This document shows positions 1,673 through 41,740 of a stretch of 41,834 bases of DNA, piece after piece. The DNA is taken from NCBI GenBank assembly GCA_001275005.1, contig JWZX01003115.1, positions 1 to 41,834 of the forward strand. Direction: 5' to 3'. Positions within the stretch are counted from its first letter, which is position 1, and each line of letters begins with the position of its first letter. Position numbers and translations under genes: made by a program. Source of the stretch: Chrysochromulina tobinii. Taxonomy: Eukaryota. The notes beneath the pieces are model-generated. The model searched no databases and was not told the DNA's origin. It saw nothing but the letters and a program-made list of their open reading frames with translations.

Positions 1673-4600
1673 ATGGCGACTCCATACCCCTCGTTACGCG
1701 TTACAGACCGCATCCTCTATTTCCTCTTGGCGATCGGCTTTTTTGGCATCACGAACGCGCAGCTCTGCGCGGAGACGTGCTACGAGTACGCCTCAGACGG
1801 TGTATGCGACGATGGCGGACCCGGAGCTGAGGACGCAAGCTGTGCGCATGGCACTGACTGCACCGATTGCGGCCCCCGAGAGCATCTTCCGCCACCGTTC
1901 TCGCCGCCCTTGCCGCCAGTACAGCCTCCAAAACCAGCGCAGCCTGGGTGGCACATCGAGCGCCACGGCCGCAGGCGTTACCCTCCCCCACGGGACTATG
2001 CGCAGGAGCTCCAGCCGGGCGGCCACCCGCAGGCGTTCGCACCCCCCAACTGCTTGGCACCAGGGCGGGTGGGCTGCCTCGCGATGCCGAAGCCGGCCCG
2101 TGCCAAGCCTGCAGCAGGCGTTCGAGCTGCGCTCTTGCCACCGGCTTGCTTCGTGTCCTCCGAGCCAGGGTGCCTGCGCCTCCCCAAGCCTTTGGCAAGG
2201 ACGGGGAACGAGCCGCTGGATAGTGGCGAGCCTGTACTTCGATTCAGAATGGATCGCACCGCAGCGCTGCTGAGCGGGCGGGCAACGCTGCCGCCCGGCG
2301 GCAGCGAGTTCACGAGCTCGATCGCGGCGGCGGACGTGGACGGCGACGGCGACCTCGACGTGCTGCTGGGGAACTATGGTAGTCCCAGCCTGGTGCTGCT
2401 CAACGCGGGCGACGGCACCTTCCCGACGAGCATCGAGCTGCCCGGCGGCAGCGCGTCCACGAACTCGATCGCGGCGGCAGACATGGACGGCGACGGCGAC
2501 CTCGATGTACTGCTTGGGAACTATGGTAGTCCCAGCCTGGTGCTGCTCAACGCGGGCGACGGCACCTTCCTGACGAGCATCGAGCTGCCCGGCGGCAGCT
2601 CGGACACGAGCTCAATCGCAGCTGCGGACGTGGACGGCGACGGTGACCTCGACGTGCTGCTTGGGAACTATGGTAGTCCCAGCCTAGTGCTGCTCAACGC
2701 GGGCGACGGCACCTTGCTGATGAGCATCGAGCTGCCCGGCGGCAGCGCGTCCACGAACTCGATCGCGGCGGCGGACGTGGACGGCGACGGCGACCTCGAC
2801 GTGCTGCTTGGGATCAATGCCAGTCCCAGCCTAGTGCTGCTCAACGTGGGCGACGGCACCTTCCTGACGAGCATCGAGCTGCCCGGCGGCAGCTCGGACA
2901 CGAGCTCAATCGCAGCGGCAGACGTGGACGGCGACGGCGACCTCGACGTGCTGGTTGGGAACAATGACAGACCCAGCGTTGTGCTTCTCAACGCGGGCGA
3001 CGGTACCTTCCCGACGAGCATCACGCTGCCCGGCCGCAGCTTCGGCACGAGCTCGATCGCGGCGGCGGACGTGGACGGCGACGGTGACCTCGACGTGCTG
3101 CTTGGGAAATATCTTGGCGGTTCCAGCCTAGTGCTGCTCAACGCGGGCGACGGCACCTTCCCGACGAGCATCGAGCTGCCCGGCAGCAGCGCGGGGGGCA
3201 CGAAGTCGATCGCGGCGGCGGACGCGGACGGCGACGGCGACCTCGACGTGCTGCTTGGGATCGATAGCGGCGGTCCCAGCCGACTGCTCCTCAACCTGGT
3301 CAACGTGGGCGACGGCACCTTCCCGACGAGCATCGCGCTGCCCGGCAGCAGCGCGGGGCACACGAGCTCGATCGCGGCGGCGGACGTGGACGGCGACGGC
3401 GACCTCGACGTGCTGCTTGGGAACTATGGTAGTCCCAGCCTAGTGCTGCTCAACGCGGGCGACGGCACCTTCCTGATGAGCATTGAGCTGCCTGGCGGCA
3501 GCGCGAACACGTACTCGATCGCGGCGGCAGACGTGGACGGCGACGGCGACCTCGACGTGCTGGTTGGGAACTGGGGTAGTCTCAGCCACGTCCTGCTCAA
3601 CGCGGGTGACGGCACCTTTCCGACGAGCGTCGAGCTGCCCGGCGGCAGCGAGTACGGGAGCTCAATCGCGGCGGCGGACGTGGACGGCGACGGTGACCTC
3701 GACGTGCTGCTTGTGAACTATGACAGTCCCAGCCTAGTGCTGCTCAACGCGGGCGACGGCACCTTCCTGACGAGCATCGAGCTGCCCGGCGTCAGCACAT
3801 CCACGAACTCGGTCGCGGCGGCGGACATGGACGGCGACGGCGACCTCGACGTGCTGCTTGGGAACTATGGTAGTCCCAGCCTAGTGCTGCTCAACGCGGG
3901 CGACGGCACCTTGCTGATGAGCTCTGCGCTGCCCGGCGGCAGCTCGGACACGAGCTCAATCGCAGCGGCGGACGTGGACGGCGACGGCGACCTCGACGTG
4001 CTGCTTGGGAACTATGGCAGTCCCAGCCTAGTGCTGCTCAACGCGGGCGACGGCACCTTCCTGACGAGCATCGCGCTGTCCGGCGGCCGCTCAGGCACGA
4101 GCTCGATTACGTACACGAACTCGATCGCGGCGGCGGACGTGGACGGCGACGGCGACCTCGACGTGCTGCTTGGGAACTATGGTAGTCCCAGCCTAGTGCT
4201 GCTCAACGCGGGCGACGGCACCTTCCCGACGAGCATCGAGCTTGGCGGCAGCGCGAACACGTACTCGATCGCGGCGGCGGACGCGGACGGCGACGGCGAC
4301 CTCGATGTGCTGCTTGGGAACTCGGGCGGTCCCAGTTATCTTCTGCCCTTCATCAGATGCTCTCAGCCTGGCACTGCACGCAGTCGCTTCGGCAACGGAT
4401 GCATCCGCTGCCCCGCTCCCTCTTCACGCCGCGACGACCATTTTGATATCTGCTACGAGTGCGAAGAGCACACGGAGCTCGACTACCGCGGCGAATGCTC
4501 CTCCTGCAAGCCCGGCAGCGATCGCTCCGTGGGAGCCACGGAGTGCACCGCCTGCCCGCGCGGCAAGCGCCAAGGTAAGGCTGGCACCTTCTGTGTCGAC

Positions 4601-16129: not shown

Positions 16130-19099
16130 CTACCTCGGCTTCACGGACGGGATGAGGCACGAGAGATCGGCTTCTTCTTGGTTCGCCCTCCTTTGGCCCT
16201 TGTGCCTCCGAGCTGTACGTACCGCTGACGGCCGACGTGGCCGCGCTTGGAAGGCCTGCATCAGCGTGGCGGCGCTCGTGGCGGCGTGATAGTCATATCG
16301 CTTCGAAGGCGACTCATCGGGAGCTCGGGGCGTGAGGTGCACCTCGCCGCGCACGAGCACGATGCCATCTTTAGTCGAGATCGTCACGTGACGTGGCCCG
16401 AGGTACGTGGCCGTCGGTTCCACGTCAGCGTCGAGAGCACCATTGTTCGGTGGGTCGAAGACTATCTTGAGCAGCCACGTGTCCTCGAGACGTTCGAGCA
16501 TGCTACTGCCGATGTGAATGCCCGGACTGAGCCCGATCCTGGTGTGAATGGGAATGCCGAGCCCGAGCCCAAGACCGGCGCCGCGGCCTTGGCGTACCGC
16601 CACGGCCGATGCGATGGCGCCGTCCTCAGCGGCGGTACGGCCGGCGAGTGCCATTGGTCGGCCAGCGAGGCCGTGCTGTTGCACGACGAGCACTTCGAGG
16701 TCGCGGCCGTCGCACCCAAAGCCCGCCGTCTCCGCGAGGGAATGCGAGAGCGGCGTCGCGCACACGACACCAAGCGGCATGTACATGGGCAGCAGCTCCT
16801 CTTTAGCATGCATCCTAGCCGGTAGGACGGCGGCCCCTGCAATCGAAGAGGCACGCACCACCGCCGCCGCATCGAGGGGCTTGGCCTCGATACGCGTCGC
16901 ATACGCTTTACGCAGCCGCTCGAGCGCCGCCGCTTTGTCGTAGAGCGCCTGCTTGAGGCGAGAGTCGAGCTTTGAGATCTGCAGCTCGCTGTCTTCGAGG
17001 CTGGTCTGCAGACGCTCGAGCTGCCGCTCAGCCTGCGCTGCCTCCCAGCTCAGACGATGGCTCGGGGGAGCAGGGGGTCGGCTGGCCGGGGGGCTCGCGC
17101 CGCTCGGACGGTGGCTCGGGGGAGCAGGGGGTCGGCTGGCCGGGGGGCTCGCGCCGCCAGCGGCTGACGTCAACCCATCTGGGATTCGTGCTGGACCCTC
17201 ATTGGGTTTCGTGCTGGACCCGACGGCGCTCGGCTGGTGCTGGTGCTGCAGCTCCGCCACCGCCTTGGCCGCCTCCGTCGCGTGCGTTTCCCCAGCGGCC
17301 TTCTTCTCCAGCGCACGGAGGGCCTCGTCTCGTGCTTCTTCGATGGCACGAAGGAGGGCCTCCTTCTCTTCGGTGGCCAGGCGCTGCACCTCGCGCGCCT
17401 GCTTGCGCTGTTCGTCGGCCTCCGCTTTCATCGCCGCCACGCGCGCCTCCGCGTCCGCCGCCATCATTTGGCCTCGATCGAACTCCTCTTGCGCGAGCCT
17501 GCGCAGCGCCTCGAGGTTCGCCTGAGCCTCGGCCATCGCCTCTCTCTCACTCTCGGCGAAGCGCCATTTGACCTCCGCGCGCTGCTGTGCCTCGTGCGCC
17601 AGCTGCAGCGCCTGCGCCGCCTGCGTCGCGTTCTCATCGGCTATTCGAATCTTCTGCAGCACCGTCTCGGAGCGGATCGACTCTGCCTGCAGCGCGTTCT
17701 CGCGTACCTGCTTCCAGTAGCGGCGCTCCGTCTGGACCGCTTGCACCTTGTCGACGTGGCACTTGGCCTCGGCCTCGCGCACCGCCTCCTCGAGCTCACG
17801 CCGAGATCGCTCCGCGCGCGCGAGCCCCATATGGGCGTCCGCTTTGATCGCATCGAGCTCGCGCTGCAGCCGGTCGGCACGCTCGGCCTCGCGCTTGGTG
17901 CTCGCGAAGGCATCCTCGAGACGCTTGGCCGCGCTCGCGCGCAGCTTCTCCTCGAGCTGGCGCAGCGCCTTGGCGTGCCGCTCCTCGGCCGCCTTGAGCT
18001 GCGCCGTGCCGCGCGCCTCAGCGGCGACACGGACCTCTCGTTGTACCTTGCTCAACTCGGCGCGATGCGCTTCGAGCAGCTGGGCCTCTCGCACAGCGGC
18101 CGCGGCCTTGTCGTGCTCCTGTGCCTGGTGGATCTTGTGCTGCTGCTGCAGCTGCTGCTGCTGCTCGTGCCGCAGGCGCGTCAAGCTCTTGGTTGTCGTC
18201 GCCACCGCCTGCCGATGCGCCTCGTTTTCGACACGTTGGGCGACCACGTCGAGCTCTGCCTCCTTGCGACGGATGGTAGCGCGCTCCTTCTCAAGACGGT
18301 CTTCGTAGTGTCGGCGCACGCGCAGCAGCGACGAGCGCGGCGAGGGCGCGCCGATCGCCGGCGAGGGCACCACATTCGTCCAAGTCGAGCCACGTGTATG
18401 GAACGGCAGCGCACCGCCGGCCGCGCTGCCACCAGCACCTGCACCCGCGCCCGTGACGGCGCCTGCACCCGCGCTGCCAGCTGCACCAGCGCCGCCGCCG
18501 CCGCCAAAGCGTGTGGCGGGGGTCCCGCTGCTGTCGCGCCGGACGCCTCCTCGGGCCGTCGTCGGCCGCCGGGAGGACGAGCGACCGGGCGTGGGTGACG
18601 CCCGCTGCGCATCGAGCAAGGTCTGCTGCACTCCAATCTCCTTTTGGATGTATTTAATCGCCTCTGTGCCCTTGAGCACGCGCGGCGGTGACCAGGCGGC
18701 AGTCGAGCTGAGCGGCGAGCCGATAGGCACGTGGAAGGCCGATGACGTAGATTCTGCTCGCGGAGAGGTTTTCACTGGTGGCGGCGGCGGCGGGGAAGAA
18801 GCTCGCAGCGGCGCACCCTCCGGCTTCTTCCTGCCCGCGGCACGCTCGCTCTCGAGCTCCGCAACGGCCTCAGCCTCTGCCGCCTCTAGATCCTGCTGAA
18901 GCGATGCCTCTTTGGAGGCCTCCGAGTCTGCCGCGGACGCTATCCCATGGATGATTTGCAGCCCTTGCCGCAGCTGCGAGGAGCGCGGCAACGAGGCGGG
19001 CGAGGCCGAAGGCCGCGTATTGTCATCGTCGTCATCGTCGGTGTCGTCGGAGGCGCTGTAGATTGGATCGTCATCGTCGTCATCGTCGTCCGAGCTCAT
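16130..19099 (-). CDS. Hypothetical long coiled-coil protein with acidic N-terminus
   Basis: ATG at 19099 (MSSDDDDD). Several hundred residues of E/A/R/Q/K-rich heptad-like sequence and a possible globular C-terminal domain. The stop overlaps AG|GTAGGT, so the gene may be spliced further. Confidence 0.7.
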   Translation of the reverse strand: MSSDDDDDDDDPIYSASDDTDDDDDDNTRPSASPASLPRSSQLRQGLQIIHGIASAADSEASKEASLQQDLEAAEAEAVAELESERAAGRKKPEGAPLRASSPPPPPPVKTSPRAESTSSAFHVPIGSPLSSTAAWSPPRVLKGTEAIKYIQKEIGVQQTLLDAQRASPTPGRSSSRRPTTARGGVRRDSSGTPATRFGGGGGAGAAGSAGAGAVTGAGAGAGGSAAGGALPFHTRGSTWTNVVPSPAIGAPSPRSSLLRVRRHYEDRLEKERATIRRKEAELDVVAQRVENEAHRQAVATTTKSLTRLRHEQQQQLQQQHKIHQAQEHDKAAAAVREAQLLEAHRAELSKVQREVRVAAEARGTAQLKAAEERHAKALRQLEEKLRASAAKRLEDAFASTKREAERADRLQRELDAIKADAHMGLARAERSRRELEEAVREAEAKCHVDKVQAVQTERRYWKQVRENALQAESIRSETVLQKIRIADENATQAAQALQLAHEAQQRAEVKWRFAESEREAMAEAQANLEALRRLAQEEFDRGQMMAADAEARVAAMKAEADEQRKQAREVQRLATEEKEALLRAIEEARDEALRALEKKAAGETHATEAAKAVAELQHQHQPSAVGSSTKPNEGPARIPDGLTSAAGGASPPASRPPAPPSHRPSGASPPASRPPAPPSHRLSWEAAQAERQLERLQTSLEDSELQISKLDSRLKQALYDKAAALERLRKAYATRIEAKPLDAAAVVRASSIAGAAVLPARMHAKEELLPMYMPLGVVCATPLSHSLAETAGFGCDGRDLEVLVVQQHGLAGRPMALAGRTAAEDGAIASAVAVRQGRGAGLGLGLGIPIHTRIGLSPGIHIGSSMLERLEDTWLLKIVFDPPNNGALDADVEPTATYLGPRHVTISTKDGIVLVRGEVHLTPRAPDESPSKRYDYHAATSAATLMQAFQARPRRPSAVRTARRHKGQRRANQEEADLSCLIPSVKPR
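17049..17156. repeat. 54-bp in-frame tandem duplication
   Basis: Two near-identical copies encoding GASPPASRPPAPPSHR(P/L)S on the minus strand. Confidence 0.9.
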
Positions 19100-19359: not shown

Positions 19360-21415
19360 TCAGCGAGTCGTCGGTTTGGCAGCGTCCCGCGACTGAGCAT
19401 CTACCTCAACCACGTTGTCTTCAGGCAGCTCGCACGCCTCCGCCAGTGCCTCTAGGCGCTTCTGCTCCTGCGCTTCAACAAAGGTCGCCAGGACGAACTC
19501 GGCGACGGTCGCGGCGGCGAGCGTTGGAAGGAAGATGGAGGGATTCTCTTGCGTGAGCTCGAGTAGGAGCACGGAGGCAGTCAGCGGGCTGCGGAAGAGC
19601 GCCCCGAGTGTGGCCGCCGCTCCCACGATCGCATACGCCGGGGCGGCGGCAACGTGGAGGATGGGCAGCACCCCCCACGAGCCAGGGACCACATCGAGGG
19701 AGAGCTGAAGCGACACGAGGTTGGTGGCTGCAAACTCCGTCGCGCTCGCCACGAGGGAGTGGAAGGCCGCGCCGGCAGTGGCGCCGATGAAGAGAGAGGG
19801 AGCAAAGAGGCCACCGACGAGACCAGCCCCGAGCGAGAAGGCAGTCGTCCCTATCTTGAGGAAGGAGTAGCCGAGGAGTGAGAGGGGCGGCTCGGGCTGC
19901 GTGTTGGCGAGGATGGCATTGAGTGTGGCGTAGCCGTTGAACAGGATGCGCGGGAACGCGATGCCAATGCTGCCGACGACCGCCGCGGCAGCCATCGGCC
20001 GGAGGAGAAGCGGCACACTCGAGCCGATTGCGCCCTCATCGGACCACACAGACAGAGAGGTTGTGCGAGCTTCGCGCACCTGACGAGGGAGGTAATCATC
20101 AGTCATCATCAGTCATCATCGGTCATCATCAGTCATCATCGGTCATCATCAGTCATCATCAACGCGCACAAGGATCGCGAGAGCGCCCGCGAGCACGCCG
20201 AGGCCGAGGTAGAAGGGCATCTCGAGCAGCGGCGACTCGAGCGTGAACTCGGGCGACTGCAGTCGAAGGGAGCCCTGGAGGATAGCCTCACTCACCAGAG
20301 CGGCACATGACGCCGAGAGCGCGACGGCGGCTACGCGGAGAGTGACGCGGGCGGGCGAGGCCTGCCACATCCGCGCGCGGCGCAGAGAGATCCGTTGGGC
20401 GGACATCTCGCTCGTCTTCATCTCGTTGAGAGCCTGCGCGTACGCAAGCCTCATCTCCGTCTCCGCCTCCTTCTCTCGCGCCCTTCCACCTTCCGTGGCC
20501 GCAATACCGTCCAGCTGGCTCCGGACCTCAGCTGCGTTGTTGTCCGTTCCCGTCGAGAGCAGAGCAGAATCATCGCACAAGGCTTCGACAGTCACATCTG
20601 GATTGAAAAAGGGCTCGATGGTCGAAGCATACGCATCGCCATACTCGGTGAATCTCTCCTGAATCGGTAGCCGCGTCCTTCCTTTGGGCTCCGGCGGGCG
20701 CAGTGCCCTGGTAGCCCGTGCCCACCCACGTGAGATCAGGGGCCGGAGCTGTAGCGCAGGCCGGCCACCTTCTGGCGCCACGGTCTCGCAGGCGAAGACG
20801 ATGCCGGCAATAGGAGCGGAGAAGCCGGCGGCGACACCGGAAGCCACGCCCGCCGCTACAAGGATCGTATCTCGCTCCTCGCAAAGACCGCCGAAGATCC
20901 GGGCAGCAATGCCTCGCCCGATGTCCACCGCGGGGCCCTCCGGCCCGAGGCTGTTGCCCGTGCCGAGTGTAGCTGCTGCTGCGGATGCCCGAGCGACGCC
21001 GCGTCTGCTCCAGTCGAACAGAGATTCATCCGGCTTTGGCGGCTTGTCAAAGCCTGGGGTGCCTACTCTCAGCACACCGACGGCCAAGCCACCGAGCATT
21101 GGCGTCGCTACCGAAATGACCTCTGGTGGCAGAGCCTGAATCCAGAACGCGTTCGGATTCAATACGATGGGTTCAATGCCCTCGATGCCAAGTTTGAGGC
21201 ACGCGACGCCGACCCCAGTCAAACAACCCAACGCTACCGCCCGAGGCAGCAGAGTGGATGCAAATTGTGGTAGTGGAGTTGGGAATGCCGGTACTGGAGG
21301 AGTATCTTGGGCCATGCGTGCAGGTGCGATGCGCACCTGAGGCACGGCTGCGGCAAAGGTGTGATAGCCATTGGCAGCCGGCACGGAGGAACACGAGCAG
21401 CCACCGATCAAGCAT
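19360..21415 (-). CDS. CLC chloride channel/transporter family protein, probably plastid-targeted; two exons (21415-20170, 20079-19360)
   Basis: Motifs GNSLGPEGPAV, AAGVASGVAAGFSAPIAG, GGLFAPSLFIGA, RSPLTASVLLLELT. The two ORFs join in frame across a 90-nt GT-AG intron. The ATG at 21415 is 1 nt out of frame with the body; the next in-frame ATG is at 21315. Confidence 0.85.
20080..20169 (-). mobile_element. 90-nt phase-0 spliceosomal intron, candidate introner copy 1
   Basis: Gene-sense: GTGCGCG-TT-(GATGATGACY)x6-GATGATTACCTCCCTCGTCAG | GTGCGCG. It contains an in-frame stop; removal gives GALAIL-VREART. The intron call is strong; mobility is inferred. Confidence 0.8.
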
Positions 21416-31676: not shown

Positions 31677-32561
31677 TCACAGATCGTCGAACAACGTCGG
31701 CGGCGCCCGTATGCACCTACGCTTACGCGCGCGCTTACCAGTGCGCAGCTCGGCGACGAACGCCCTCGTGCGCTCCTGAAGATACTCGATGGCCAGGCGG
31801 CGCTCCCACCTACGAATGCGCGTGCGCCACGCGCCTTGGATCGTCTCCACTGCGCGATCCTCGATGGCATCGAGCCTCAGTGCACGCGCATCCATGACTG
31901 CGCACCAGCGCCGCCACGACGCCGTGATCACCGTCGCGGACGCGTGCCGCAGTCGGATGGTCTTGCGGCAGTGGACACCGAGCAGGTGGCTCTGGATGAC
32001 CATAGCCGCGCGGTCCTCGGGTGTGATGGTACGTCGGCGGATGGTCAGCTCGAGACGCCCGATTGCAGGCCGCAGCACATGGGCTGCATCCTCGCCGCTG
32101 GAGAGCTGCCACTCTTGGCCAGTCGCAACGAGGCGCACCTGGCAGATGACGTCACCCCATCTGAGGCCGTGGCGCCATGCCGTGCCGTACGGCTCGATGC
32201 ACTGCAGCTCTGCACCATCGTCGCCATGCTGCGAGTGGAAGCGGACGCCAAGCGGGACACCTTTCCGCTTGGTCAGTGGCAGCACCTCTGTGCGACGGCG
32301 TGGCGGTGGAAGGACCGTGCGCATCGTTGGAGGAGGCGTGCGCATGGGTGGTGGAGGCGTGCGCACAGCAGCCGGCGGAGGAGGAGGAGGCGTGCGCACA
32401 GCGGATGGATGTGCGCGCGCGGGTGGCATAAATTTGAAGTCAGTGTTCGAAGCATATTTGTCGCCGAGCGGGACGGGCGCAAGCATGGGCGCATCCTTCT
32501 GGAAGATGCTGCTCAATAGGCTGCCAGAGCGCGCGCGACCGCCGTGAGTAACAGGAAGCAT
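31677..32561 (-). CDS. Protein with Pro-rich segment, PDZ-like domain and IQ-like motifs
   Basis: GVPLGVRF...GTAWRHGLRWGDVICQV (PDZ-like); AAMVIQSHLLG, SATVITASWRRW, AVETIQGAWR (IQ-like). Confidence 0.6.
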   Translation of the reverse strand: MLPVTHGGRARSGSLLSSIFQKDAPMLAPVPLGDKYASNTDFKFMPPARAHPSAVRTPPPPPPAAVRTPPPPMRTPPPTMRTVLPPPRRRTEVLPLTKRKGVPLGVRFHSQHGDDGAELQCIEPYGTAWRHGLRWGDVICQVRLVATGQEWQLSSGEDAAHVLRPAIGRLELTIRRRTITPEDRAAMVIQSHLLGVHCRKTIRLRHASATVITASWRRWCAVMDARALRLDAIEDRAVETIQGAWRTRIRRWERRLAIEYLQERTRAFVAELRTGKRARKRRCIRAPPTLFDDL

Positions 32562-32660
32562 TTCGTCGCCGACTAGAATCGATCGATTTTGGGGTCACCC
32601 TACGATCGATGAGACGCCGAACTCCCCAAAGTTGTGTTTCGTCCAAGCTCACAGACCCGA

Positions 32661-32681
32661 CAAGTCAAGTCAAGTCAAGTC
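32661..32681. repeat. (CAAGT)4 pentanucleotide microsatellite
   Basis: caagtcaagtcaagtcaagtc in the divergent intergenic region. Confidence 0.85.
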
Positions 32682-33016
32682 TAAGACTAGCGGCCCGGAA
32701 TTCACACGATCTGAAGACATAGGAATCTATTGCCAGGCCAGATGAGACGTTTCACCTTCAGGCCCATGAAAGCGGGGTATTCGGACGGACGGAGCGCGAG
32801 TTGATCGAGCGACCCATGGCGCGTCCCACGCCGCTTTGAATGTATCGACATGTTCATGTTAACTTACGCTCGTGATTTAACGATTCATGAACGTCGTGCT
32901 GGGCGCTCGCAATGACCGCAATGAGGTCGAGCTCACCACCGCCCGCGGGCGGGCGGGCGGCGCTCGCTCGCTCGCTCGCCCCCAAAAGGGCGCACACGGC
33001 CGCATCCATCGGAGCC

Positions 33017-33889
33017 ATGAAATTGCGCCTCGCGATGCGTCTCGTGCTGCTCAGCGCCCTGGCTATCTGCTCGGACGGCTTCACCGTCTCACCTTGGTTG
33101 CCCAGGAGGCCACGCACGCTGATACATACGCATGGTGCGTCGATGATGTGCACGTACGAAGCGATCCGCCCTACACGACCACCGCCTCCCACCATGGACG
33201 AGCTGAAGACGGTCGTCAAGCCGGCGGGCGACATGGGTATGGGTTGCTTCGCGGCGGAAGATGGTGCCGCTGACACGTGGGTTTGCCAGTACGTGGGCGA
33301 GCCAATTACATTGCTGGAATCCACGCACAAATACGCCGACAAGGATCCACAATATCTCTTTCAGATCACTCCCGACCTCTACCTGGACGCAGAGGAATCG
33401 ACCCATCATTCACGCTTCTTCAATCACGCGCAGTTCGCCAACCTCAAGTTCACCGTCGATGTGCAGCGCCAGCGCGTCGACTTTTGGCTCCAGCGCGACG
33501 TACGGGCTGGGGATCAGCTCATGTTCGACTATGGCATGGCATACTGGTTGGGACTCGGCATCACGCCAGTGGGTGACACGCGCAACTTCACAAGGCCCAC
33601 GCCACACTCGCGCTCGCGCCAGCCCACAGGTCCCAAGCCCATAACGCCGACGAGCCCGGTGCAGCTCGCGGAGGTGCTCGCCCTCGCCGAAGGGCAAGCA
33701 CGCCCGGCACTGCTGCGCGCTCTGGAGTACTTTGGAGCGATGCGGTTGGGCGAGGGCGTGCTGCGTATCCGCTTTGGCCTCGGCGAGGGCACCCCGACGC
33801 GCGACGTCGACCCGGAGAAGGTCGAGCTTGGGGTGCTGCACGAGGCGGCCGCCGCGTGCATCGCACAGGCCTCGCGGGCTCGGCCATGA
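33017..33889 (+). CDS. SET-domain lysine methyltransferase with signal peptide (probably plastid-targeted)
   Basis: GMGCFA, QYVGE, SRFFNHA, QLMFDYG SET motifs. Leader MKLRLAMRLVLLSALAICSDG-F from ATG 33017. Confidence 0.82.
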   Translation: MKLRLAMRLVLLSALAICSDGFTVSPWLPRRPRTLIHTHGASMMCTYEAIRPTRPPPPTMDELKTVVKPAGDMGMGCFAAEDGAADTWVCQYVGEPITLLESTHKYADKDPQYLFQITPDLYLDAEESTHHSRFFNHAQFANLKFTVDVQRQRVDFWLQRDVRAGDQLMFDYGMAYWLGLGITPVGDTRNFTRPTPHSRSRQPTGPKPITPTSPVQLAEVLALAEGQARPALLRALEYFGAMRLGEGVLRIRFGLGEGTPTRDVDPEKVELGVLHEAAAACIAQASRARP

Positions 33890-34000
33890 AGCATGCTGCC
33901 CTTTGAGAGTACGTAGTATCAAGCTCATGAGGCCCGGTCCTCGCCGCTCCAATTCGAAAACTTACATCGGAAGTCATCGGAGAACCTTAAAAGACGTTCT

Positions 34001-35000
34001 ATGTCCGACGACAACAAGGTTCTCGTTCTCCAGGCCACCGGCAAGGCCGGGCGCAACATCGCCCTCGCTCTGAAGAATGCTGGCTTCGAAGTGTTCGGCA
34101 CCACTCGCTCCGCCAAAAACAACCTCGCGTCGAAGGGCATCACGCCCGTCATCGCTAACTACACGGTACAGGCTGACATTGACCGCGCGATCAAGGAGTC
34201 CGGCGCGAAGAAGGTGATCGGCATCACTGACTTCTTTAAGGCCGCGAAGTCCAGGGGCGCGGTCGAGATCGCGCACGGCCAGGCGCAGTTCGAGGCCTGC
34301 AAGGCCGGCGGCGTCGCGCACTACATCTTCGTCTCTGTCGTGCAAGCCAGCGATATCGCGTGGCCGGCTGTCTGCAAGCACATCTCTACGAAGGCCGAGA
34401 TGGAGAAGAACCTGAAGGCGTCCGGCATTCCGCACTCCATCCTGCGCCCGTGCGTCTTCTTCGAGAACTTTGACGACGCAGCCAATTATAACCCGCTCAA
34501 GAAAGGCGCAGTGAAGTTCCTCTCCAAGTGCGTGACCCCAACCGGGGCTTACAAGTGGGTCTCCACATACGACGTGGGTCGCGCCGCCGCCGCGCACTTC
34601 AAAGACCCCGCCAAGTACCTCGGCACGACTCTCGAGTGCATGTCGTGGCAGGGCAGCCTCGATGACGTCGCACGCGCACTGCAGACGGTCTCCGGCGTGC
34701 CTGTGAAGGCCTCGCTCGCTATGCCCATCTGCCTGCGCAAATTGTTCCTGAAGGACCTCGATGGGATGTGCAACTTCTACGACGAGGATGGCCTGAAGGA
34801 CCACATTGCCGAGTTTAAGGCAGTCGTGCCGGACCCGCTGGATGCAGAGGGCTGGTTCCGGTTGGTACCTCCCTTACTTCTCTGACCTCCCTTACTTTCT
34901 TTCTGTACTCTCTTACTTCCTACTGTCTTACTTCGTACTGCCTACTTCCTACAGGTTCCACAACCGCTACGCCAACGGAAAGAAGATCGTCGACACGTAA
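34001..35000 (+). CDS. NmrA-like atypical SDR (Rossmann fold); two exons
   Basis: VLVLQATGKAG, HISTKAEME, SILRPCVFFENF, WVSTYDVGRAAA. A pyrimidine-rich intron ending TACAG at 34954 leads to terminal exon FHNRYANGKKIVDT*. Confidence 0.88.
34855..34954 (+). other. Short phase-2 spliceosomal intron built from degenerate CTTACTT repeats
   Basis: Sharp switch to C/T-rich repeats; acceptor CTACAG|G. Donors at 34855 (GTTCCG) and 34861 (GTTGGT) both preserve frame. Confidence 0.75.
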
Positions 35001-35323
35001 GTCTCCTACGCGCTGACCACGGAGACCACCCCGAACCGGAGTTGCGCACACATCGGGCCATACGAGCGACTGGCCTCTGCCGTGATGCTGAGAGAGTGAG
35101 AACTTAGCGCAGCCGAAAAGAGGGTTTTTTCCGATAACGAAGATAGCGAGAATCTCCCGAGAACCTACCTCCGGTATTCATCCGATACACGGAGACACAG
35201 AGGGATCTTTACGTTTACCGTACGGCATCGACGGTTCGCTCTTTGGACCGACGGATACCGCGATACGGATTCAACATTCCGATCGTAACTGCTGACGCGG
35301 TGCGAGTCCAAGGCCCGGCCGGT

Positions 35324-35357
35324 TGTAGAAGGACGTAAGATTTTACGTCCTTCTACA
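35324..35357. repeat. Perfect 15-bp inverted repeat with 4-nt loop
   Basis: TGTAGAAGGACGTAA-GATT-TTACGTCCTTCTACA. Confidence 0.92.
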
Positions 35358-35821
35358 GGTCCTCGGGTGTCCAAAGACAAAGGACTCTTCGGTCAGAGCC
35401 GCTCCGGTCAGACATGCCGAATTGTCTAGACTCAATTGCGCGGTCAGAGGACAGAGCGATCGGTCTTGGACGCCCTGTTTTGTTTATCGGCGGGATGCCG
35501 GCCGATGCGATGGGGCATGGCCCATCTCCGCCGATCGATGACGTACACACTCACGGTACCGACGTAACGCCGAAGGATACACACAAGGTTTCGGCCCGAC
35601 GCACACAAGGTGCGCCACACACAATCAAGGTTTCGGCTCAGCCAATAGGTACCCAACCGTTGGCCTCTTGCTCGACCGGGTAACTCTCCCCCTGGCTCAC
35701 TGGTTCCGATGTGGGAAACACCCCAGCCCCCACTGACGCATGCCCGTCGTCAGCCGAACCCGCCGCCCAATCCGATCGTCGAGTCGGCCTGTCGCGCACG
35801 ATCGTGCGACACGCCAAGCGC

Positions 35822-37639
35822 TCAGAGCTTGGCGATCATGCTGCTTGTGTAGCCCAGCTGGTCGAGCACCGTGCCTTGGCGCAGCGCGCGTTCCTCTCGT
35901 GGCCCACACAGCGCCGTGTAGAGCGCGGGCGGCCCGCAGATGAAGCAGAGCGTCTCCTTGGACGGCGCGAAGGCATACTTGCTCAGCTTGGCTTTGTCAA
36001 CCTCTCCGCTCTCGGCCACGTATGTGTCCGTGGTCTTCCACCCTTCGGGCGGCGCCGCGTCGGGCGCGTCGCCCACCACGTGCACGACGGTCAGCCGGTG
36101 CGGCAGCGCGCGCGCCCACTCGTCGAGCTCGCGCCGCAGCAGGATGTCGGCGGTCGTGCGGCTGTGGTAGATGAGCACCGCCTTGCGCTCGTCCGCCGGG
36201 ATGAAGAGCATCTTCCATAGGATTTGGTACATGGGGGCGAGGCCCATGCCGCCCGCGAGCATGTTGAAGCGCTCCTTGCCCTCGAAAGGGTACTGCTCCT
36301 TGAGGCAGAGGGCCGGGTGACGGAACGCGACTTTCGAGCCAATAGGGAGTTCATGCAGCCACGCGGCAACCTCATCGGGGGGCTCGGAGCCCCGTCTCAC
36401 CATGAGTTCGAACGTGCCTTGCAGGCCGGGGTCGGATGTGGGGAAGTAGGCGCGCATGGCGTCGCGCCCTTCCTTACCCCTGGCGGGCGCGCGCACGAGG
36501 AGGCACGCGCAGGCGGGCAGGCGCAGCGTCTGCGTCGGCTCCGGGAGGCCAAAGCCGTACACTGCGGTGTCGTGCGTGTGGTCGCGCCGGGTTCGTAACG
36601 GCAGCTCGAGCCATTCGCACGGCACGACGCACGAGGAGGCGTACGTGAGCGAGGCCGGGTGCGGCGCGAGCCGCGTGCATCCGAGCTCGAGCAGCTTTTC
36701 CCACGCAGCCGCAAAGTCGGCAAAGAAGCTCTTGGAGTCGCTCGCGTACTTTTCTGCATACACCCGCAGCTTCGGGTCGCGAAGCAACGCGTGGTCCGTG
36801 GGCAGCATGATCGTGCTCCCGTCAGAGCTACGCAGGAGCACCCCCGCTGAGCCACATGCCGACGGCTCGTATTTCTTCGAGAGCAACTCGACGTAGTACG
36901 AGTTATCGAAGCGGTTCGGATGCTCCGTCCAAGGGCCGCCACCTGGCGCCCCGTTGGGTGGCTCATATTCCCCGAGGGTGTGACGGCCACACAGGGCGAC
37001 GATCTCACGGTCGGTGAAGCCCTTCCTGTGGAAGATGACGCGCAGGTGGTCGGCCATGTGCTCCGACGGCGACGCCTCGGCACCGCTCGCGAGGTCGTCG
37101 GGCAGCCGGCCGGCGGCCGATGGCACAGAGTCAGCCGACGTCGCCGCGTCCCGCCGCCCGAATCGGCTCAGGATGCTCGGCCCACCGAGGGCCTCGATGG
37201 CCACGTTTGCGGCGTGGGCCCACAGATCAGCGCGCGAGATGTTCGGGTACTGCGCCTTGATCGGCTCGAGGAGCGGCACCGCGCGCTTCGCCAGAAAGGC
37301 GTTGCAAGGAAAGGCGCCCTCGCCCCTGTCGGCAAAGCGCAAGGCAGCATTGGGACCACCTCCACCAAGGGCTGCGCTGTACGTGGCGGCATCGGCAAAG
37401 GCAAGCTGCACAAAGACTGGCCCGCACTTTTCACGCTCGATGAGGCCGCGCACGTCCGCGGTGAGCTGCCCATAGTCCCAGGCGACCGCAAGAGCAGCGG
37501 CGCGCTCGTACAGCATGTCGGCGATGGCTGCGAGTGGTTGCGGCCGCTCCTCCTCTACGCAGATGGCGACCGCGTCAGAGAGCACGGCCTCGAGCTGATT
37601 GATCTCCAGGTACTCGCCCACGGCATCGAAGGACGGCAT
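35822..37639 (-). CDS. Fusion of RIIa/DPY-30-like docking domain, class I heme peroxidase fold (APX/CcP-like, distal residues lost) and cytochrome b5 reductase-like FAD/NAD module
   Basis: ATG at 37639. EYLEINQLEAVLSDAV...RPQPL; CGPVFVQLAFADAATY, ISRADLW, GRRDA, GRLPD, IVALCGRHTLG, GPWT, FDNSYY, MLPTD; then MRAYFP, MLAGGMGLAPMYQ, FICGPP. Confidence 0.85.
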   Translation of the reverse strand: MPSFDAVGEYLEINQLEAVLSDAVAICVEEERPQPLAAIADMLYERAAALAVAWDYGQLTADVRGLIEREKCGPVFVQLAFADAATYSAALGGGGPNAALRFADRGEGAFPCNAFLAKRAVPLLEPIKAQYPNISRADLWAHAANVAIEALGGPSILSRFGRRDAATSADSVPSAAGRLPDDLASGAEASPSEHMADHLRVIFHRKGFTDREIVALCGRHTLGEYEPPNGAPGGGPWTEHPNRFDNSYYVELLSKKYEPSACGSAGVLLRSSDGSTIMLPTDHALLRDPKLRVYAEKYASDSKSFFADFAAAWEKLLELGCTRLAPHPASLTYASSCVVPCEWLELPLRTRRDHTHDTAVYGFGLPEPTQTLRLPACACLLVRAPARGKEGRDAMRAYFPTSDPGLQGTFELMVRRGSEPPDEVAAWLHELPIGSKVAFRHPALCLKEQYPFEGKERFNMLAGGMGLAPMYQILWKMLFIPADERKAVLIYHSRTTADILLRRELDEWARALPHRLTVVHVVGDAPDAAPPEGWKTTDTYVAESGEVDKAKLSKYAFAPSKETLCFICGPPALYTALCGPREERALRQGTVLDQLGYTSSMIAKL

Positions 37640-37788
37640 GCCGACGACGGCGCACTTCTCCGTGTGCTGTGAACGCGTGTGTGAACTTGGGTGTGAACGT
37701 GGCAGACATTTATTTGTAGTGGATATAAAAGCTCTTTTACATGTACGAGTACCAAAACAGGGTTTTCTCTGCAACTCCTCTGCACAGC

Positions 37789-40008
37789 TCACGTCGTGTT
37801 GAAGCCGGCAAGGAACCCGTTCGACACCCACGGGAAGCCGATCGCGCCGTTGTGCACGCGCGGCTGGCGTAGCGGCGCGCGGAAGGGGTTGAGCTCAATC
37901 GGCACTGAGAGCTCGAGGCCGTGCGCTTGGGCACGGTGCACACCGCGCTCGATCGAGTACTCGGAGTAGTCCGTCAGGAAGAAGGGCGTGCGGCGCTGCT
38001 GCAGGTAGTCGAGTGATGGGGACCAAAGATACTCACGTGCGGCGAGGCCCGCGTTGAGCGCGATCGCAACGTCGGCCGGCGGCAGGTGGGGCGCGGCCTT
38101 ATGGTACCAGCCGCCACTGCCGCCATGGGCGCGCACCGTCACGCTCCCGCCGAGCCGTCCGTCGTACTTGACCGACTCGGGCAACGGCACATCGACCGGT
38201 CCGGCCATCTCGATGGTGATCGTCGTGCTGGGCATGAGCACCGCGAGCTCCTTGAAGAGAGGCAGCAGCCAGAGCTCCTTCTCCGGCCCAAGGTAGTGCA
38301 CGCTCAGTGGGCGTGCCGAGTCACGCATCCCAAGTTTCGTCAGCGCATGGTAGACGGTCAGTGGGAAGCTGAGCAACACGGCGAGCGGGGAGGCAGGCGA
38401 GAGGCTCCTCGAGGCATAATAGCTCGCCCAGTCAGTAGGGGGCGCCGTGAGCGTGGGCGCGCCGTCGAGGGCGTCCACGAGGTGGCGGTGCGGCGAGGGC
38501 GCGCTCGCGCAGCCGCAGAGTAGACGGTACGATTCCTCCTGGTGAACGCCAATCGCCTCGAGCACCTCGCAGTACGAGACCTCACACCGGTGATCCATCG
38601 AGGCACGCAGCCACGCAGGCTCTGTCGCGCCGAGGTGCACACGTACGTCGCGCTTCATGTAGCGTCCCATGTCGTCGCAAGTTGTCGAGGCTTGGTCATC
38701 GGCTGAAGTCCCCAAGTGCTTCAATGCATCTTGAGCCTGGCAAGCAGCTGAGCAGTAGCTGATGCATTCGCAGCGCCCGCAAACCATCGCGCTTGGGGTG
38801 GCCTTGCCGCACACGGCACAGCTGAGGAATCGCACTGTGCCCGCACCCTCGGCAGGGGAGACTAGCGGCGGAAGCGGCAATGGCGTGCTGCTGCCGGCGG
38901 TGGTGGCAGAGGGCGCTGTCTTGGACGCTGCCTCCGCGGAGGCGGCAGACGTCGGGCTGCTGCCACGGCTGCTGCGGCCGCGGCTGGTGGAGGAGCCCGT
39001 GTCACCCGTCGCGCCACCCATGCTGCCTGTGCCGCCCGTGCCGCCCGCGTCCTTCGCCCTCGCCTCACCTTCGCCCTCGCCTTCGCCTTCGCCTCGAGCC
39101 ACCGCCGCATCCTCCTCGAAGGCGCCTCGATGGAGCGCTTCAAAGACACGCGTCCGCACATCGTCCCAACGGCCGCGCGCTCGCACGGTCTCGTCGAGCA
39201 GCTCCGTCACCTCGAGCAGCGCGAGCTCGCGCGTGGTCCGCGGCGGCGCCCTCTGCTGCTTGCGCACCGCCTCCTCCTGGGCCCTCATCAGTGCACGCAC
39301 GTCAGGCACATGCGACAGCTGCGCCGCAGCGAGCACGTGCTCGAGAGGCGCGCCGAGAGTCCAAAAGGGGGGCTCGAGCGCCGCGAGCGCCATGTCGCGC
39401 CGCTCCTCGGGCCGCCGCACCCGCTCCAAGAGCTCCGCTTGCTGCCACAGGCAGCACGCCCATCCAGGGTTATTGGCAGTGCCTCGCTCCATGGCCACGA
39501 GTGCGGCGGTCTCGTCGCCGCGCTCGAGCTGGTAGCGCGCGAGCTGAGCCCACACGTCGGGAAACCCGGTGCCGGCCTTGAGCAGCAGGAATTGCGGCAG
39601 GCCCAGCTTGCTCTTGCCAAACTCGCCCGCCTCGTAAGCTTTGCCGCCCGCCTCAACGCAAGCGGCAGAGGCAGCCCGCACGAGCTCAGCGTCGCCACCA
39701 CTGGCGTCGGTCTCCACGGCCACGCGCCGCGCAAACTGAGCAATCGTACCCATCGGCTTCAAGGTGAGCGACGCAAGGTCCACGTCACGGTCGCTAGCTT
39801 GCGCGTGCGTCGACACCACCACCGCTGTACCCACTTTTCCAATCGGCCAGCGCAGCAGGCCGAGCACGCCACGCGACGCTTCCACAGAGCGTGCAAATGG
39901 TGCAACTAGCGGGTGCAGACCGCGCGTCGGCAGAGCGTCGGGCGTCGCATGCCCTTGCAGCTTGAGCATGGCTGCGAGTGCTGGGCGACTCGCCAAGATC
40001 CGACTCAT
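37789..40008 (-). CDS. PAB (chloroplast ATPase biogenesis)-like N-terminal domain, MYND zinc finger and MSS51-like C-terminal domain
   Basis: GLHPLVAP...LLRWP...FPDV...GDETAALV...PFWTLG resembles plant PAB from memory. CAVCGK...CGRCECISYCSAACQAQD is MYND. LSFPLT, VHYLGPEKEL, ALNAG, NPFR match the MSS51-type C-terminus. Start MSRILASR at 40008. Confidence 0.7.
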   Translation of the reverse strand: MSRILASRPALAAMLKLQGHATPDALPTRGLHPLVAPFARSVEASRGVLGLLRWPIGKVGTAVVVSTHAQASDRDVDLASLTLKPMGTIAQFARRVAVETDASGGDAELVRAASAACVEAGGKAYEAGEFGKSKLGLPQFLLLKAGTGFPDVWAQLARYQLERGDETAALVAMERGTANNPGWACCLWQQAELLERVRRPEERRDMALAALEPPFWTLGAPLEHVLAAAQLSHVPDVRALMRAQEEAVRKQQRAPPRTTRELALLEVTELLDETVRARGRWDDVRTRVFEALHRGAFEEDAAVARGEGEGEGEGEARAKDAGGTGGTGSMGGATGDTGSSTSRGRSSRGSSPTSAASAEAASKTAPSATTAGSSTPLPLPPLVSPAEGAGTVRFLSCAVCGKATPSAMVCGRCECISYCSAACQAQDALKHLGTSADDQASTTCDDMGRYMKRDVRVHLGATEPAWLRASMDHRCEVSYCEVLEAIGVHQEESYRLLCGCASAPSPHRHLVDALDGAPTLTAPPTDWASYYASRSLSPASPLAVLLSFPLTVYHALTKLGMRDSARPLSVHYLGPEKELWLLPLFKELAVLMPSTTITIEMAGPVDVPLPESVKYDGRLGGSVTVRAHGGSGGWYHKAAPHLPPADVAIALNAGLAAREYLWSPSLDYLQQRRTPFFLTDYSEYSIERGVHRAQAHGLELSVPIELNPFRAPLRQPRVHNGAIGFPWVSNGFLAGFNTT

Positions 40009-40388
40009 TGCGATGTGTGTGCCGCGCCGACGACGTCGGCTTTTGTCTGCCCTCGCGCGGGGAGGGCACGACCTTTTCAACAGTGAACGACTTGATGCCT
40101 TCTACCGAGAAACCGCAAGCTACGGCTCACAGACTTTTCACAGAAAGCTGGGAGAGCTCCTTCGGCTCAACTTTTTCTGCACTTTCATTCCCACAAGCCA
40201 ACAAACACGTTCAACGCAATCTCAAATACCGGGTACATTTTACGTGAAAGGCAGCACCTCGTACACTTTCACCGTCAGGTATCACTTTTATGAGGGGGTC
40301 ACGATTGCAATCAGTGCGTTTCCAGGGTTTCGTTGAGATTCGTCGCTGGCCCGGTTTTCCGTGCAGGTTTTCTGGTTTTTAGCATGAA

Positions 40389-41216
40389 ATGGAACACGCA
40401 CCCATCGTGGGCCCCGATTTCCAGCGAGCCGCACAGCGAATGGCGCCGCTCGTACGCAGTTTGCTCGTGGAGCATGCAGATCCTGCCAAGGTACCGGTCG
40501 ATTCCCTTCTCATTGCGCTCGGGCGGCGTGGCGATCACGCGGCGATCAGAGCCGCACGCAAGGAGTTTGATGTCCTTCATGTGCCAGCGGCACTATCATC
40601 TGCCTCGTGTGCATCGCTGCGCAGCGCCGTCGATTGCGAGCGGCGACTGCTCGCCGATAGCGTCGACCAGTGCCCGGAGCATCAGCGGAATCTCAACTCT
40701 GAGGAACTTGAGAAGCTCCTCGGCGCAGAAGCGTTTGGCAGGCTGATAAGCTTGCCGCATGTGTACGAGAAGCGGCGCGATGGCGCGGCACCCTCGTCCG
40801 TAGAAATGGATGAAATCGAAGACGCTGAAGCCCGCGCCACAGGCATCTTGACGCTGCGCGAGGCTTTCATCCGGCGATACAGCAGCGACACGCGGCCTTG
40901 GAATCCCTTCCATCAAGATGCGTACCGCACCACCGTCAACGTGGCCTTGTCCGCGGATGAGGCGCACGTGGGAGGCCGGCTCCTCGGGTGCTATGCTGGC
41001 AAGGTGCAGGTGATCGAACGAGCCGAGGGTGAAGCCACAGTGCACAGCTCGGAGCTCTTGCACGCTGTCAGCCGCATGACAAGCGGGGTGAGGTACTCTC
41101 TCATCTTATTCTTCGACCCGCGCCCCAGGGTCGTGCGCAAGGACGGGCTTGTTGAGGCCCGCTGGGCGAATCGGCGATGGGTTCCGCCATCTGGGAACGA
41201 GCGATGGTGGGAGTGA
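40389..41216 (+). CDS. 2-oxoglutarate/Fe(II)-dependent dioxygenase (PLOD/P4H-like)
   Basis: FIRRY...FHQD...TVNVAL...GG.L...LHAVSRMTSGVRYSLILFF. Confidence 0.85.
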   Translation: MEHAPIVGPDFQRAAQRMAPLVRSLLVEHADPAKVPVDSLLIALGRRGDHAAIRAARKEFDVLHVPAALSSASCASLRSAVDCERRLLADSVDQCPEHQRNLNSEELEKLLGAEAFGRLISLPHVYEKRRDGAAPSSVEMDEIEDAEARATGILTLREAFIRRYSSDTRPWNPFHQDAYRTTVNVALSADEAHVGGRLLGCYAGKVQVIERAEGEATVHSSELLHAVSRMTSGVRYSLILFFDPRPRVVRKDGLVEARWANRRWVPPSGNERWWE

Positions 41217-41740
41217 TCGCCGCGCTGAGCTTGCCATAGACTGAGAGGAGTGGACTCATAAGAAAACCTGAGAAGGTCAACGCGCAGCCACGCACGGAGC
41301 GAGAGCACACGGCATTCGGCGCACTCGCATGATTCACCGTGTTTTTATCCTCAGTAATTTTGGCTCCGGTTGCAGCCTGCACGTTGGTGCATCGCATACA
41401 CTAGCCGAGAGCTTGAAACTTGAGGTCAACGCAGCGGAGCGCAAAGCGGCGTAAGCGCGCAAAGAATCATGATACAGATACGCAACAGATACGCATGATG
41501 TGTACATGATATATTGACGAAGAGTATAGAGAGTTCAGCGCTCAAAATTGACACAATCGATCCAACCGCCATGACCCATGTGTGTGAGTCGTCACCAATA
41601 GGAAATGGATCACAGTGCAGAGGTGTAAGGGTCGAGCCGCAGCCTGATATGAACAGAGCGCTGGAACCAGAAACGCCGGAGCACGAAATCAATCAATGGT
41701 GAATGAATGCATGCCGCCCTGGCCAATTTTACTGCCATAA

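Follow-up and report, generated by a model that had tools for sequence, protein, structure and literature searches.

Locus and Coding Sequence

Contig JWZX01003115.1 of the freshwater alga Chrysochromulina tobinii (assembly GCA_001275005.1) was analysed over positions 1 to 41,834 of its forward strand, a stretch of 41,834 nucleotides that is called the window here. The minus-strand frame 37639..35822 is open, codes for 605 amino acids, starts with MPSF and ends with IAKL. Its product joins a predicted docking domain, a class I pseudo-peroxidase and a cytochrome b5-reductase-like domain (Table 1). The frame begins at its first in-frame ATG, in agreement with the MPS start of homologous proteins. 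Pfam assigns a peroxidase domain (PF00141) to residues 61–301 (E 1.5e-35, 123.6 bits for a cut-off of 27), FAD_binding_6 to residues 346–442 (E 2.1e-11) and NAD_binding_1 to residues 460–577 (E 2.6e-19), the last two also above their cut-offs. The AlphaFold2 model of the full protein, built from a 50-row alignment, has a predicted local distance difference test score (pLDDT) of 95.3 and a predicted template modelling score (pTM) of 0.90; a search of the ESM Atlas found no usable match for the whole protein or for residues 1–52. The C. tobinii supplement (PMC4580454), considered here for its listed rows (to ~7900, in a genome of 16,777 genes), contains Ctob_003020, an 'ascorbate peroxidase' of 605 residues whose ~400 displayed residues match the window protein by eye.

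Table 1. Features of the fusion gene (window positions; residue numbers of the 605-residue protein)
Feature	Position	Strand	Description or evidence
Whole gene	35822..37639	-	605 residues, intronless; docking domain, pseudo-peroxidase and b5-reductase-like domain
Residues 1–52, three helices, predicted DPY-30/RIIa-like dimerisation/docking domain	37484..37639	-	Profile, Foldseek, VIA, dimer model
Class I (APX/CcP-like) heme peroxidase fold, residues 53–324	36668..37483	-	Pfam, alignment, fold match
Distal motif QLAFADAATY	37379..37408	-	Arg38 to Gln78, Trp41 to Phe81, His42 to Ala82
Proximal motif GRHTLG	36971..36988	-	His220 kept (His163 equivalent); following loop without His169/Arg172 equivalents
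GPWT, proximal Trp237 kept	36926..36937	-	Alignment
LPTD, proximal Asp282 kept	36794..36805	-	Alignment
Linker, residues 325–343	36611..36667	-	H327, P328, S330, L331, Y333, C337, P340 and W343 invariant in 8/8 rows
FAD-binding lobe of the b5-reductase fold	36314..36610	-	RAYF (Thr66 to Phe399), DEVA for GxxS, Y417G
NAD-binding lobe	35822..36271	-	GGMGLAP; CGPP kept; C-terminal Phe to Leu giving -AKL

Contigs from six RNA runs of five studies cover the frame piecewise with no joint inside it. The docking/peroxidase junction is bridged by RNA contigs X11 record 15 and X12 record 23, the peroxidase/reductase junction by X13 record 11 and X12 record 5; no single RNA contig among the six runs spans the full gene, uncovered stretches carrying no weight as evidence. 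The libraries hold mRNA because a GT-AG intron of the adjoining NmrA gene is spliced in them and because the bin 35166–35376 is bare in 4/4 runs. The open frame, the joint-free contigs and the two bridged junctions bear out the claim of an earlier reading of the sequence (the original prediction) that the fusion is one gene: it is a real, transcribed, three-domain fusion.

Peroxidase Domain

The peroxidase half superimposes on T. cruzi peroxidase 7opt with a VIA Z of 36.9 and a root-mean-square deviation (rmsd) of 2.1 over 266 residues, and its Pfam score and fold place it in the class I peroxidase-catalase superfamily. The RLAWHEA motif of the Leishmania peroxidase pairs without gaps with QLAFADA of the window protein. 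Arg38, Trp41 and His42 are thus all replaced, whereas on the proximal side His, Trp and Asp are retained, both exactly as predicted from the sequence. The distal Asn113 of class I peroxidases is also kept. The loop following His220, GEYEPPNGAPGG, has no Arg and so offers no equivalent of the ascorbate-binding Arg172. Arg219, which precedes the proximal His in GRHTLG, is typical of the fusion family and occurs in 0/115 peroxidase domains from outside it. Loss of the whole distal triad is rare, because the non-family domains compared keep Arg38 in 105/106 cases and Trp41 and the distal His in 96/105 each; they keep the proximal His in 111/115.

The window protein, which has none of the three distal residues, retains 54 of 62 conserved positions outside the pocket, compared with 51 of 62 in the intact Prymnesium parvum member of the family. 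Nine other strongly conserved positions, which we take to line the heme pocket by analogy with the APX heme contacts and not from coordinates, are kept in 8/9 cases by the window protein and by the other three full rows of its subclade, in 3–7/9 by the other seven full rows of the clade and in 6–7/9 by intact-looking members. Because eight of these nine positions are kept, heme b is probably still bound in the window lineage. Real peroxidase activity is unlikely, since Arg38 and His42 are crucial if H2O2 is to be cleaved heterolytically (PMC8069737).

Compared with the class definitions in the part of PMC8069737 consulted, the protein lacks Arg38, Trp41, His42 and Arg172 of APX and has the proximal His163. 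It resembles APX-R, defined by Arg38, Phe41, His42, His163 and no Arg172, in Phe41, His163 and the absence of Arg172, with Arg38 and His42 missing. In APX-L/TL29 positions 38, 41, 42, 163 and 172 are all replaced; the window protein keeps His163, an arrangement of the type termed 'hybrid' in the same source.

Reductase Domain

Residues 344–605 have the b5-reductase fold, matching yeast Cbr1 (7rom) with VIA Z 30.0 and rmsd 1.9 over 242 residues. The two-lobe fold, the GxGxxP motif (GMGLAP) and CGPP are present. RxY(T/S), the flavin contact motif of Thr66, and GxxS, whose Ser127 contacts the flavin phosphate (PMC8745658), are absent in their normal form: the first reads RAYF (36443–36454) and the second DEVA. 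Stand-alone relatives keep Thr66 in 29/30 cases, the Gly of GxxS in 29/31 and its Ser in 30/31. The domain had been called atypical on three grounds, two of which, RAYF and the missing GxxS, hold. Within the third, GGMGLAP (36233–36253), the Ala is not unusual, as yeast Cbr1 has GIAP and just 19/31 stand-alone relatives have Thr at this position.

Of 64 positions that are conserved among 31 stand-alone relatives, the window reductase keeps 50 (the relatives themselves have a median of 94% and a minimum of 81%); elsewhere in the fusion family P0005 keeps 40/63 and P0028 46/64. The changes in the window reductase are concentrated around the flavin (P397A, T399F, Y417G, G422D, S425A). In porcine b5 reductase the change Thr66Val alone leaves ~9% and ~4% activity (PMC9687028). 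The fold is likely crippled, and hydride or electron transfer from NADH would be weak or absent.

The carboxyl terminus -AKL also calls for comment. The peroxisomal targeting signal of type 1 has the consensus [SAC]-[KRH]-[LM], with which -AKL agrees; just 6/14 complete carboxyl termini of the family fit it, residues 602–604 form a strand of the fold and the stand-alone relatives already end in -xKF.

Amino Terminal Docking Segment

Residues 1–52 are modelled as three helices with pLDDT 92.3. A 16-row profile of the segment has as its sole match the amino terminus of the Chlamydomonas central-pair flagellar enolase (7n6g, E 0.0046). Foldseek ranks dimerisation/docking (D/D) chains of DPY-30 at places 1–9, with E ~1, and in VIA the five best rows among 48161 belong to docking chains of radial spokes, axonemes or PKA (Z 5.0–5.8, under the decisive level of the tool). 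The segment shares with DPY-30/RIIa domains their helix pattern and a Y-L...L...V...P..P-L signature. The Pfam Dpy-30/RIIa models match 0/16 amino terminal segments and 0/21 full rows, a search that short divergent domains often escape. With residues 1–130 of the P. parvum protein as query, the protein itself was the sole match among 2464 candidates.

When two copies of residues 1–330 were modelled together, a homodimer formed through residues 6–51 with a score of 0.70, against 0.00 for the best control. The two chains are predicted to dock in the X-type manner, with 96% contact agreement between runs and pLDDT of at least 89. The score mark was reached by 21/30 solved pairs and 0/23 single chains from microbes, and by 17/29 and 0/30 from eukaryotes. 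Note that the model may owe its pass to memory, D/D dimers having already been solved, and that heme was included in the run. These three weak concordant lines and the dimer model support the proposal of a docking domain of the RIIa/DPY-30 kind.

Two further proteins bear on this segment. P0063, a peroxidase with an intact R-W-H motif, has a similar docking-like amino terminus and yet falls outside the fusion clade; peroxidases may have acquired the docking tag on two occasions. The C. tobinii protein Ctob_015668, annotated with a 'dpy-30 motif', has an amino terminus that looks alike by eye.

The Haptophyte Fusion Family

Among 251 compared proteins, 76 carry the amino terminal segment or the two enzyme folds, and at the 90% level they fall into 33 clusters. 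All three parts are present in 16 of these clusters, where the three-part frame persists down to ~43–50% identity. The named members are from haptophytes: Prymnesium parvum KAL1504311.1 (P0027) and a protein from a Prymnesium sp. metagenome-assembled genome (P0048). The peroxidase domains of the fusions group in one clade (15/45 rows, support 100/97) beside intact algal APX-like proteins, a sister type that also dominates loci L005–L027. Their reductase domains (10 fusion rows and one fragment) group inside a clade of algal stand-alone b5 reductases, with a support of 90 in the Shimodaira–Hasegawa-like approximate likelihood ratio test. The simplest reading would be a single fusion event in a haptophyte ancestor.

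The P. parvum member keeps every catalytic residue (R-W-H, H-W-D, RPYT, GxxS, GTGITP, CG), which makes it a candidate NADH-fed heme peroxidase that may feed itself within one chain. P0039, P0243, P0010, P0060 and P0210 keep R-W-H where they are covered. The family tree has 27 rows, from which the scored columns were removed, with P0063 as outgroup; 6/33 clusters were left out as too short, and P0010, P0045, P0060, P0242 and others, which are incomplete or read through introns, were left unscored beyond the break. The distal His is absent in 18/27 rows of this tree, and its starred branches force at least four changes (some three losses plus a single regain or retention). The His-less groups are P0244, the pair P0028/L003 and a Phe/Tyr clade of 16 rows, 15 of them without distal His. 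In 3/13 scorable rows of the Phe/Tyr clade Lys, Arg and Arg stand in place of the proximal His; P0028/L003 has Asn there and P0244 has Gln, which amounts to its loss in five lineages.

The subclade of the window protein (six rows, 56–78% identity) has Phe in 6/6, Ala or Ser in 6/6 and the proximal His in 5/5. In the family as a whole the residues at the distal sites vary freely, and Q/F/A is not a family signature. Reductase sites likewise decay differently from lineage to lineage. Invariant positions number 67 in residues 1–325 (11 rows) and 59 in residues 326–605 (8 rows); what the family has in common, as judged from these alignments, is the docking segment, the fold cores and the linker. 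With some three losses of the distal His, and with the proximal His missing from five lineages, the function that unites the family is neither peroxidase catalysis nor heme ligation.

Other unusual peroxidases were encountered in the comparison. P0029, P0032, P0034 and P0062 (1095–2731 residues) carry at least two class I peroxidase domains in tandem and form further pseudo-peroxidase arrays; in some of them His42 has become Gln or Arg, and in one the proximal His is substituted. P0009, P0011 and P0218 are dinoflagellate-type peroxidases with an extra domain before the peroxidase, which by eye looks PDZ-like; P0011 and P0218 start with MG..CC.

Selection on the Gene

Thirteen strain differences lie in the frame, 10 silent over 454 sites and three replacements over 1361 sites (Fisher p 1.2e-4), so that silent changes are ~tenfold more frequent per site than replacements. 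Locus L002 has six silent changes and no replacement over 404 codons. The L003/L004 pair, in which both histidines are lost, differs by eight silent changes and two replacements, with seven and none, respectively, in the peroxidase part. Q78, F81, A82, H220, W237 and D282 are constant in all covering members among the 15 cluster members compared. The comparison of the window with L003 (dS 0.94, dN 0.50) is near saturation and was not used for dN/dS, and L001:1-9815, identical to window positions 31825–41639 throughout, is not independent evidence.

The window gene is under purifying selection and is not decaying. The original prediction had asked whether Q/F/A is conserved under dN/dS<1. Purifying selection is found, and Phe and Ala/Ser are conserved in the 6/6 subclade clusters; the Arg site varies (Q, R, Q, H, R, Q). 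It had also named as a possible refutation that homologues keep RLAWH while this copy decays neutrally; some homologues, that of P. parvum among others, do keep R-W-H, yet the gene shows no decay.

Expression

The expression values in fragments per kilobase per million (FPKM) come from one unreplicated time course. Ctob_003020 reads D6 2.57, D10 2.46, L1 1.88, L4 1.61, L6 2.40, L10 4.09 and D1 3.12 (PMC4580454). C. tobinii has two flagella and a haptonema, and its flagellar genes are reported to peak at D6, in mid-dark (PMC4580454). Rows were sampled as the first five per term (of six for intraflagellar transport (IFT), eight for radial spoke, one for dynein and 25 for flagellar-associated). 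A D6 peak of 31–372 FPKM was found for 5/5 IFT, 5/5 radial-spoke and 1/1 outer-arm dynein rows. The test is not absolute, since rows annotated only as 'flagellar associated' peak at D6 in 2/5 cases and at L10, at low level, in 2/5, the fifth being silent. Ctob_003020 lies ten- to hundredfold under the core flagellar genes and has its maximum at L10. The flagellar role implied by the original prediction thus finds no support here, with 1.6–4.1 FPKM and an L10 peak set against the D6 peak of 11/11 core flagellar genes inspected in the supplement. C. tobinii expresses two or more CcP-type genes that retain RLAWH, at up to 111–120 FPKM, so that peroxide removal does not depend on the window gene.

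A flavin-photoreceptor role was also considered, the photopigment of haptophytes being described as unknown (PMC2781859). It was set aside, since the damage falls on the FAD site and no evidence links the protein to a flagellum.

Other Genes in the Window

The window is a gene-dense eukaryotic stretch with a GC content of ~63%. The NmrA-like gene next to the fusion (34001–35157, plus strand) has a 94-nt GT-AG intron (~34860–34953) that is spliced in three RNA runs; Ctob_003019, which matches it, ranges from 56 to 1539 FPKM across the day (PMC4580454). A neighbouring carrier gene groups, at the 90% level, with a protein of Chrysochromulina parva. The segments 35690–35754 and 37666–37701, flanking the fusion gene, match several unrelated DNA and RNA contigs and are probably small dispersed repeats in untranslated DNA. 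On the other side, a minus-strand gene at 37789–40080 codes for a protein with a MYND finger, MSS51_C and a long amino terminal region, covered over 37805–40040 by one RNA contig.

Farther away, a plus-strand frame of 1478 amino acids (1673–6109) resembles a receptor kinase in its architecture, with 13 or more FG-GAP repeats ahead of a protein kinase domain. The minus-strand frame 16130–19099 (989 amino acids) is without a Pfam match, and its AT skew is strong (-0.37 at 17001–18000). A voltage-gated chloride channel is encoded in two frames at 19360–21315 (minus strand), probably split by an intron.

Interpretation

The reading that we favour, and that in our judgement stands about evenly between right and wrong, is that of an anchored homodimeric double pseudoenzyme that acts by binding and probably still carries heme in the window lineage. 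One gene codes for the three folds, is held by purifying selection and is expressed at a low, flat level. With the distal triad gone, established APX/CcP chemistry would allow no Compound I and no real peroxidase activity, and transfer of electrons or hydride from NADH would be weak or absent. The predicted homodimer through residues 6–51 would create a D/D groove able to receive the amphipathic helix of a partner, and the protein, tethered to this anchoring helix by its docking helices, would act as a non-catalytic regulator. In the window lineage His220 would hold heme b as a structural or passive cofactor. The function common to the family would be to bind or to scaffold, with no need for heme or turnover, and the ancestor would have been an intact NADH-reductase/peroxidase fusion like the P. 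parvum protein.

Several observations weigh against this reading. The D/D assignment has no single significant match (none in Pfam, E ~1 in Foldseek, Z <6), and the analysis turned up no binding partner for the groove. The window reductase retains Arg396, Tyr398, Ser402, GxGxxP and CGPP, and the reductase motifs of some His-less relatives are close to intact (P0212, and in part P0213 and P0006), so that the description as dead in both halves may not hold across the family. The heme pocket of the subclade (8/9 in 4/4 rows) is better kept than that of the intact-looking members (6 and 7/9), and Phe, Ala/Ser and the proximal His are constant there, a pattern suggestive of selection for a heme site whose distal side is open.

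This last point leads to a heme-based sensor of ligands or redox state, unlikely on balance though deserving real weight. Heme b bound by His220-Asp282-Trp237 would have five-coordinate iron, left open to O2, NO, CO or a larger ligand by the Gln/Phe/Ala side; the rigid linker or the docking dimer would relay the signal, and the reductase fold would be an output or nucleotide-sensing module. The kept non-distal pocket, the constancy of Phe, Ala/Ser and proximal His within the subclade and an expression as low and flat as that of a regulator all fit. APX with His42Ala is said to keep its heme, and this mutant has been crystallised (2vcs). However, five other lineages no longer have the proximal His, so that sensing cannot be what the family shares; the His169/Arg172 propionate contacts are missing; 130/266 columns are invariant in the four rows anyway, which makes one kept His weak evidence; and the protein has no known sensor output domain. 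Of the two readings offered in the original prediction, the double pseudoenzyme is judged the better, and a protein with an open distal pocket could apply to the window subclade only.

A working flavo-heme oxidoreductase, in which electrons would pass within the chain from NADH through FAD to a heme that turns over O2 or NO in its ferrous state, as in flavohemoglobin, or hands electrons on, appears improbable. The heme fold and a reductase of the ferredoxin-NADP reductase (FNR) type stand in one confidently modelled chain joined by an invariant linker, the motif residues retained in the reductase include Arg396 and Tyr398, flavohemoglobin reductase domains have the same fold, and several His-less relatives have at the Thr66 site a Val, which stabilises the neutral semiquinone in b5 reductase (PMC9687028). 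Against it stand the five changes on the FAD side, the loss of the heme ligand in sister lineages and an expression that is low for a detoxifying enzyme. A broader and more speculative scheme, in our view somewhat less improbable than this, would make the family a self-contained flavo-heme enzyme of haptophytes, fed by NADH through the fused b5 reductase without ascorbate or cytochrome c in the P. parvum form. In Chrysochromulina the distal pocket would have been hollowed out, leaving an anchored hemoprotein that binds gas and would be, on a peroxidase scaffold, either a flavohemoglobin by convergence or a sensor of NO or O2.

Residual or altered peroxide chemistry in the enlarged cavity (slow peroxidase, peroxygenase or peroxynitrite sink) is credible to a small degree only. 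The proximal triad is intact, and the Leishmania pseudoperoxidase, of the same fold (5via, Z 23.8), decomposes peroxynitrite at moderate rates (PMC12398798, citing Bose 2012); but the two residues crucial for H2O2 cleavage (PMC8069737) are both gone, expression is low and the same organism has intact peroxidases. A shade less credible still is a structural component of axoneme or haptonema docked by the D/D domain. It would account for the best amino terminal match, an enolase located in the C1b arm (10.1101/2022.01.23.477438), for the radial-spoke and axoneme chains that head the VIA list and suits an organism with two flagella and a haptonema; the level and timing of the transcript argue against a stoichiometric part, and D/D domains occur in PKA and COMPASS as well. 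That the gene is in neutral decay or consists of two mis-joined genes can hardly be believed: low expression, many motif losses and the lack of an RNA contig over the whole frame would fit, whereas the excess of silent changes, the constancy of Q78, F81, A82 and H220 in the 15 members where covered, the three-part frame in 16 clusters and the RNA contigs across both junctions largely refute it.

Comparison with Known Systems

Pseudo-peroxidases and chains that join heme and reductase domains are already known; what appears to be new is an architecture for class I peroxidases that was met in no paper of the literature searched. No description of a peroxidase–b5-reductase fusion was found in the literature searched, with most subscription papers and RedoxiBase outside its reach. 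The consulted part of a superfamily survey names fusions with WSC domains alone and mentions no haptophyte (PMC4232752). The family forms a natural series, from the intact form (P. parvum) through one with the distal side stripped and the pocket kept (Chrysochromulina) to sister lineages that have lost the heme ligand, all under selection. Such a series makes testable how an enzyme becomes a pseudo-peroxidase and what pseudo-peroxidases such as APX-L do. There is also a practical side: the gene goes under the label 'ascorbate peroxidase' or 'NAD(P)H-flavin reductase', and in transcriptomes of haptophytes that form blooms it will wrongly be counted towards antioxidant capacity.

With the class I peroxidases (APX, CcP and hybrid-type A APx-CcP; Leishmania 3riv and 5amm, T. 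cruzi 7opt) the window protein shares the fold, the proximal His-Trp-Asp and the distal Asn113. It differs from them by the absence of Arg38, Trp41, His42 and the His169/Arg172 loop and by the fused docking and reductase domains. APX-L/TL29 is likewise a class I fold stripped of catalytic residues and yet held by selection, and its route, Trp41Phe with His42Asn, appears also in a sister subclade of the window protein (PMC8069737). Unlike TL29, from which it is distant (Z 18.2, 23% identity), the window protein keeps His163 and most of the pocket and is multidomain; we infer that the haptophyte pseudo-peroxidases arose independently. The Leishmania major pseudoperoxidase (5via, Z 23.8, 23% identity) also has a peroxidase fold without normal distal catalysis, but is a single-domain protein with another ligand set, reportedly with Cys ligation, and has neither reductase nor docking domain.

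The reductase half shares the two-lobe fold, Arg-x-Tyr, GxGxxP and CGPP with NADH-cytochrome b5 reductase and the flavin domain of nitrate reductase (7rom, 1cnf). It departs from b5 reductase by Thr66 to Phe, GxxS to DxxA, the carboxyl terminal Phe to Leu and the absence of His49, which is also absent in stand-alone algal relatives. Flavohemoglobin and Ncb5or have the same order, a heme domain followed by an FAD/NAD reductase whose fold matches that of the window protein at Z 19.7–23.2; there the heme domain is a globin or a cytochrome b5 and not a peroxidase fold, and the reductase of the window protein is degenerate. The amino terminal segment agrees in helix pattern, signature and predicted homodimer with DPY-30/RIIa domains such as the amino terminus of the Chlamydomonas flagellar enolase, from which it is set apart by the missing Pfam match and by a transcript that is not co-timed with axonemal genes.

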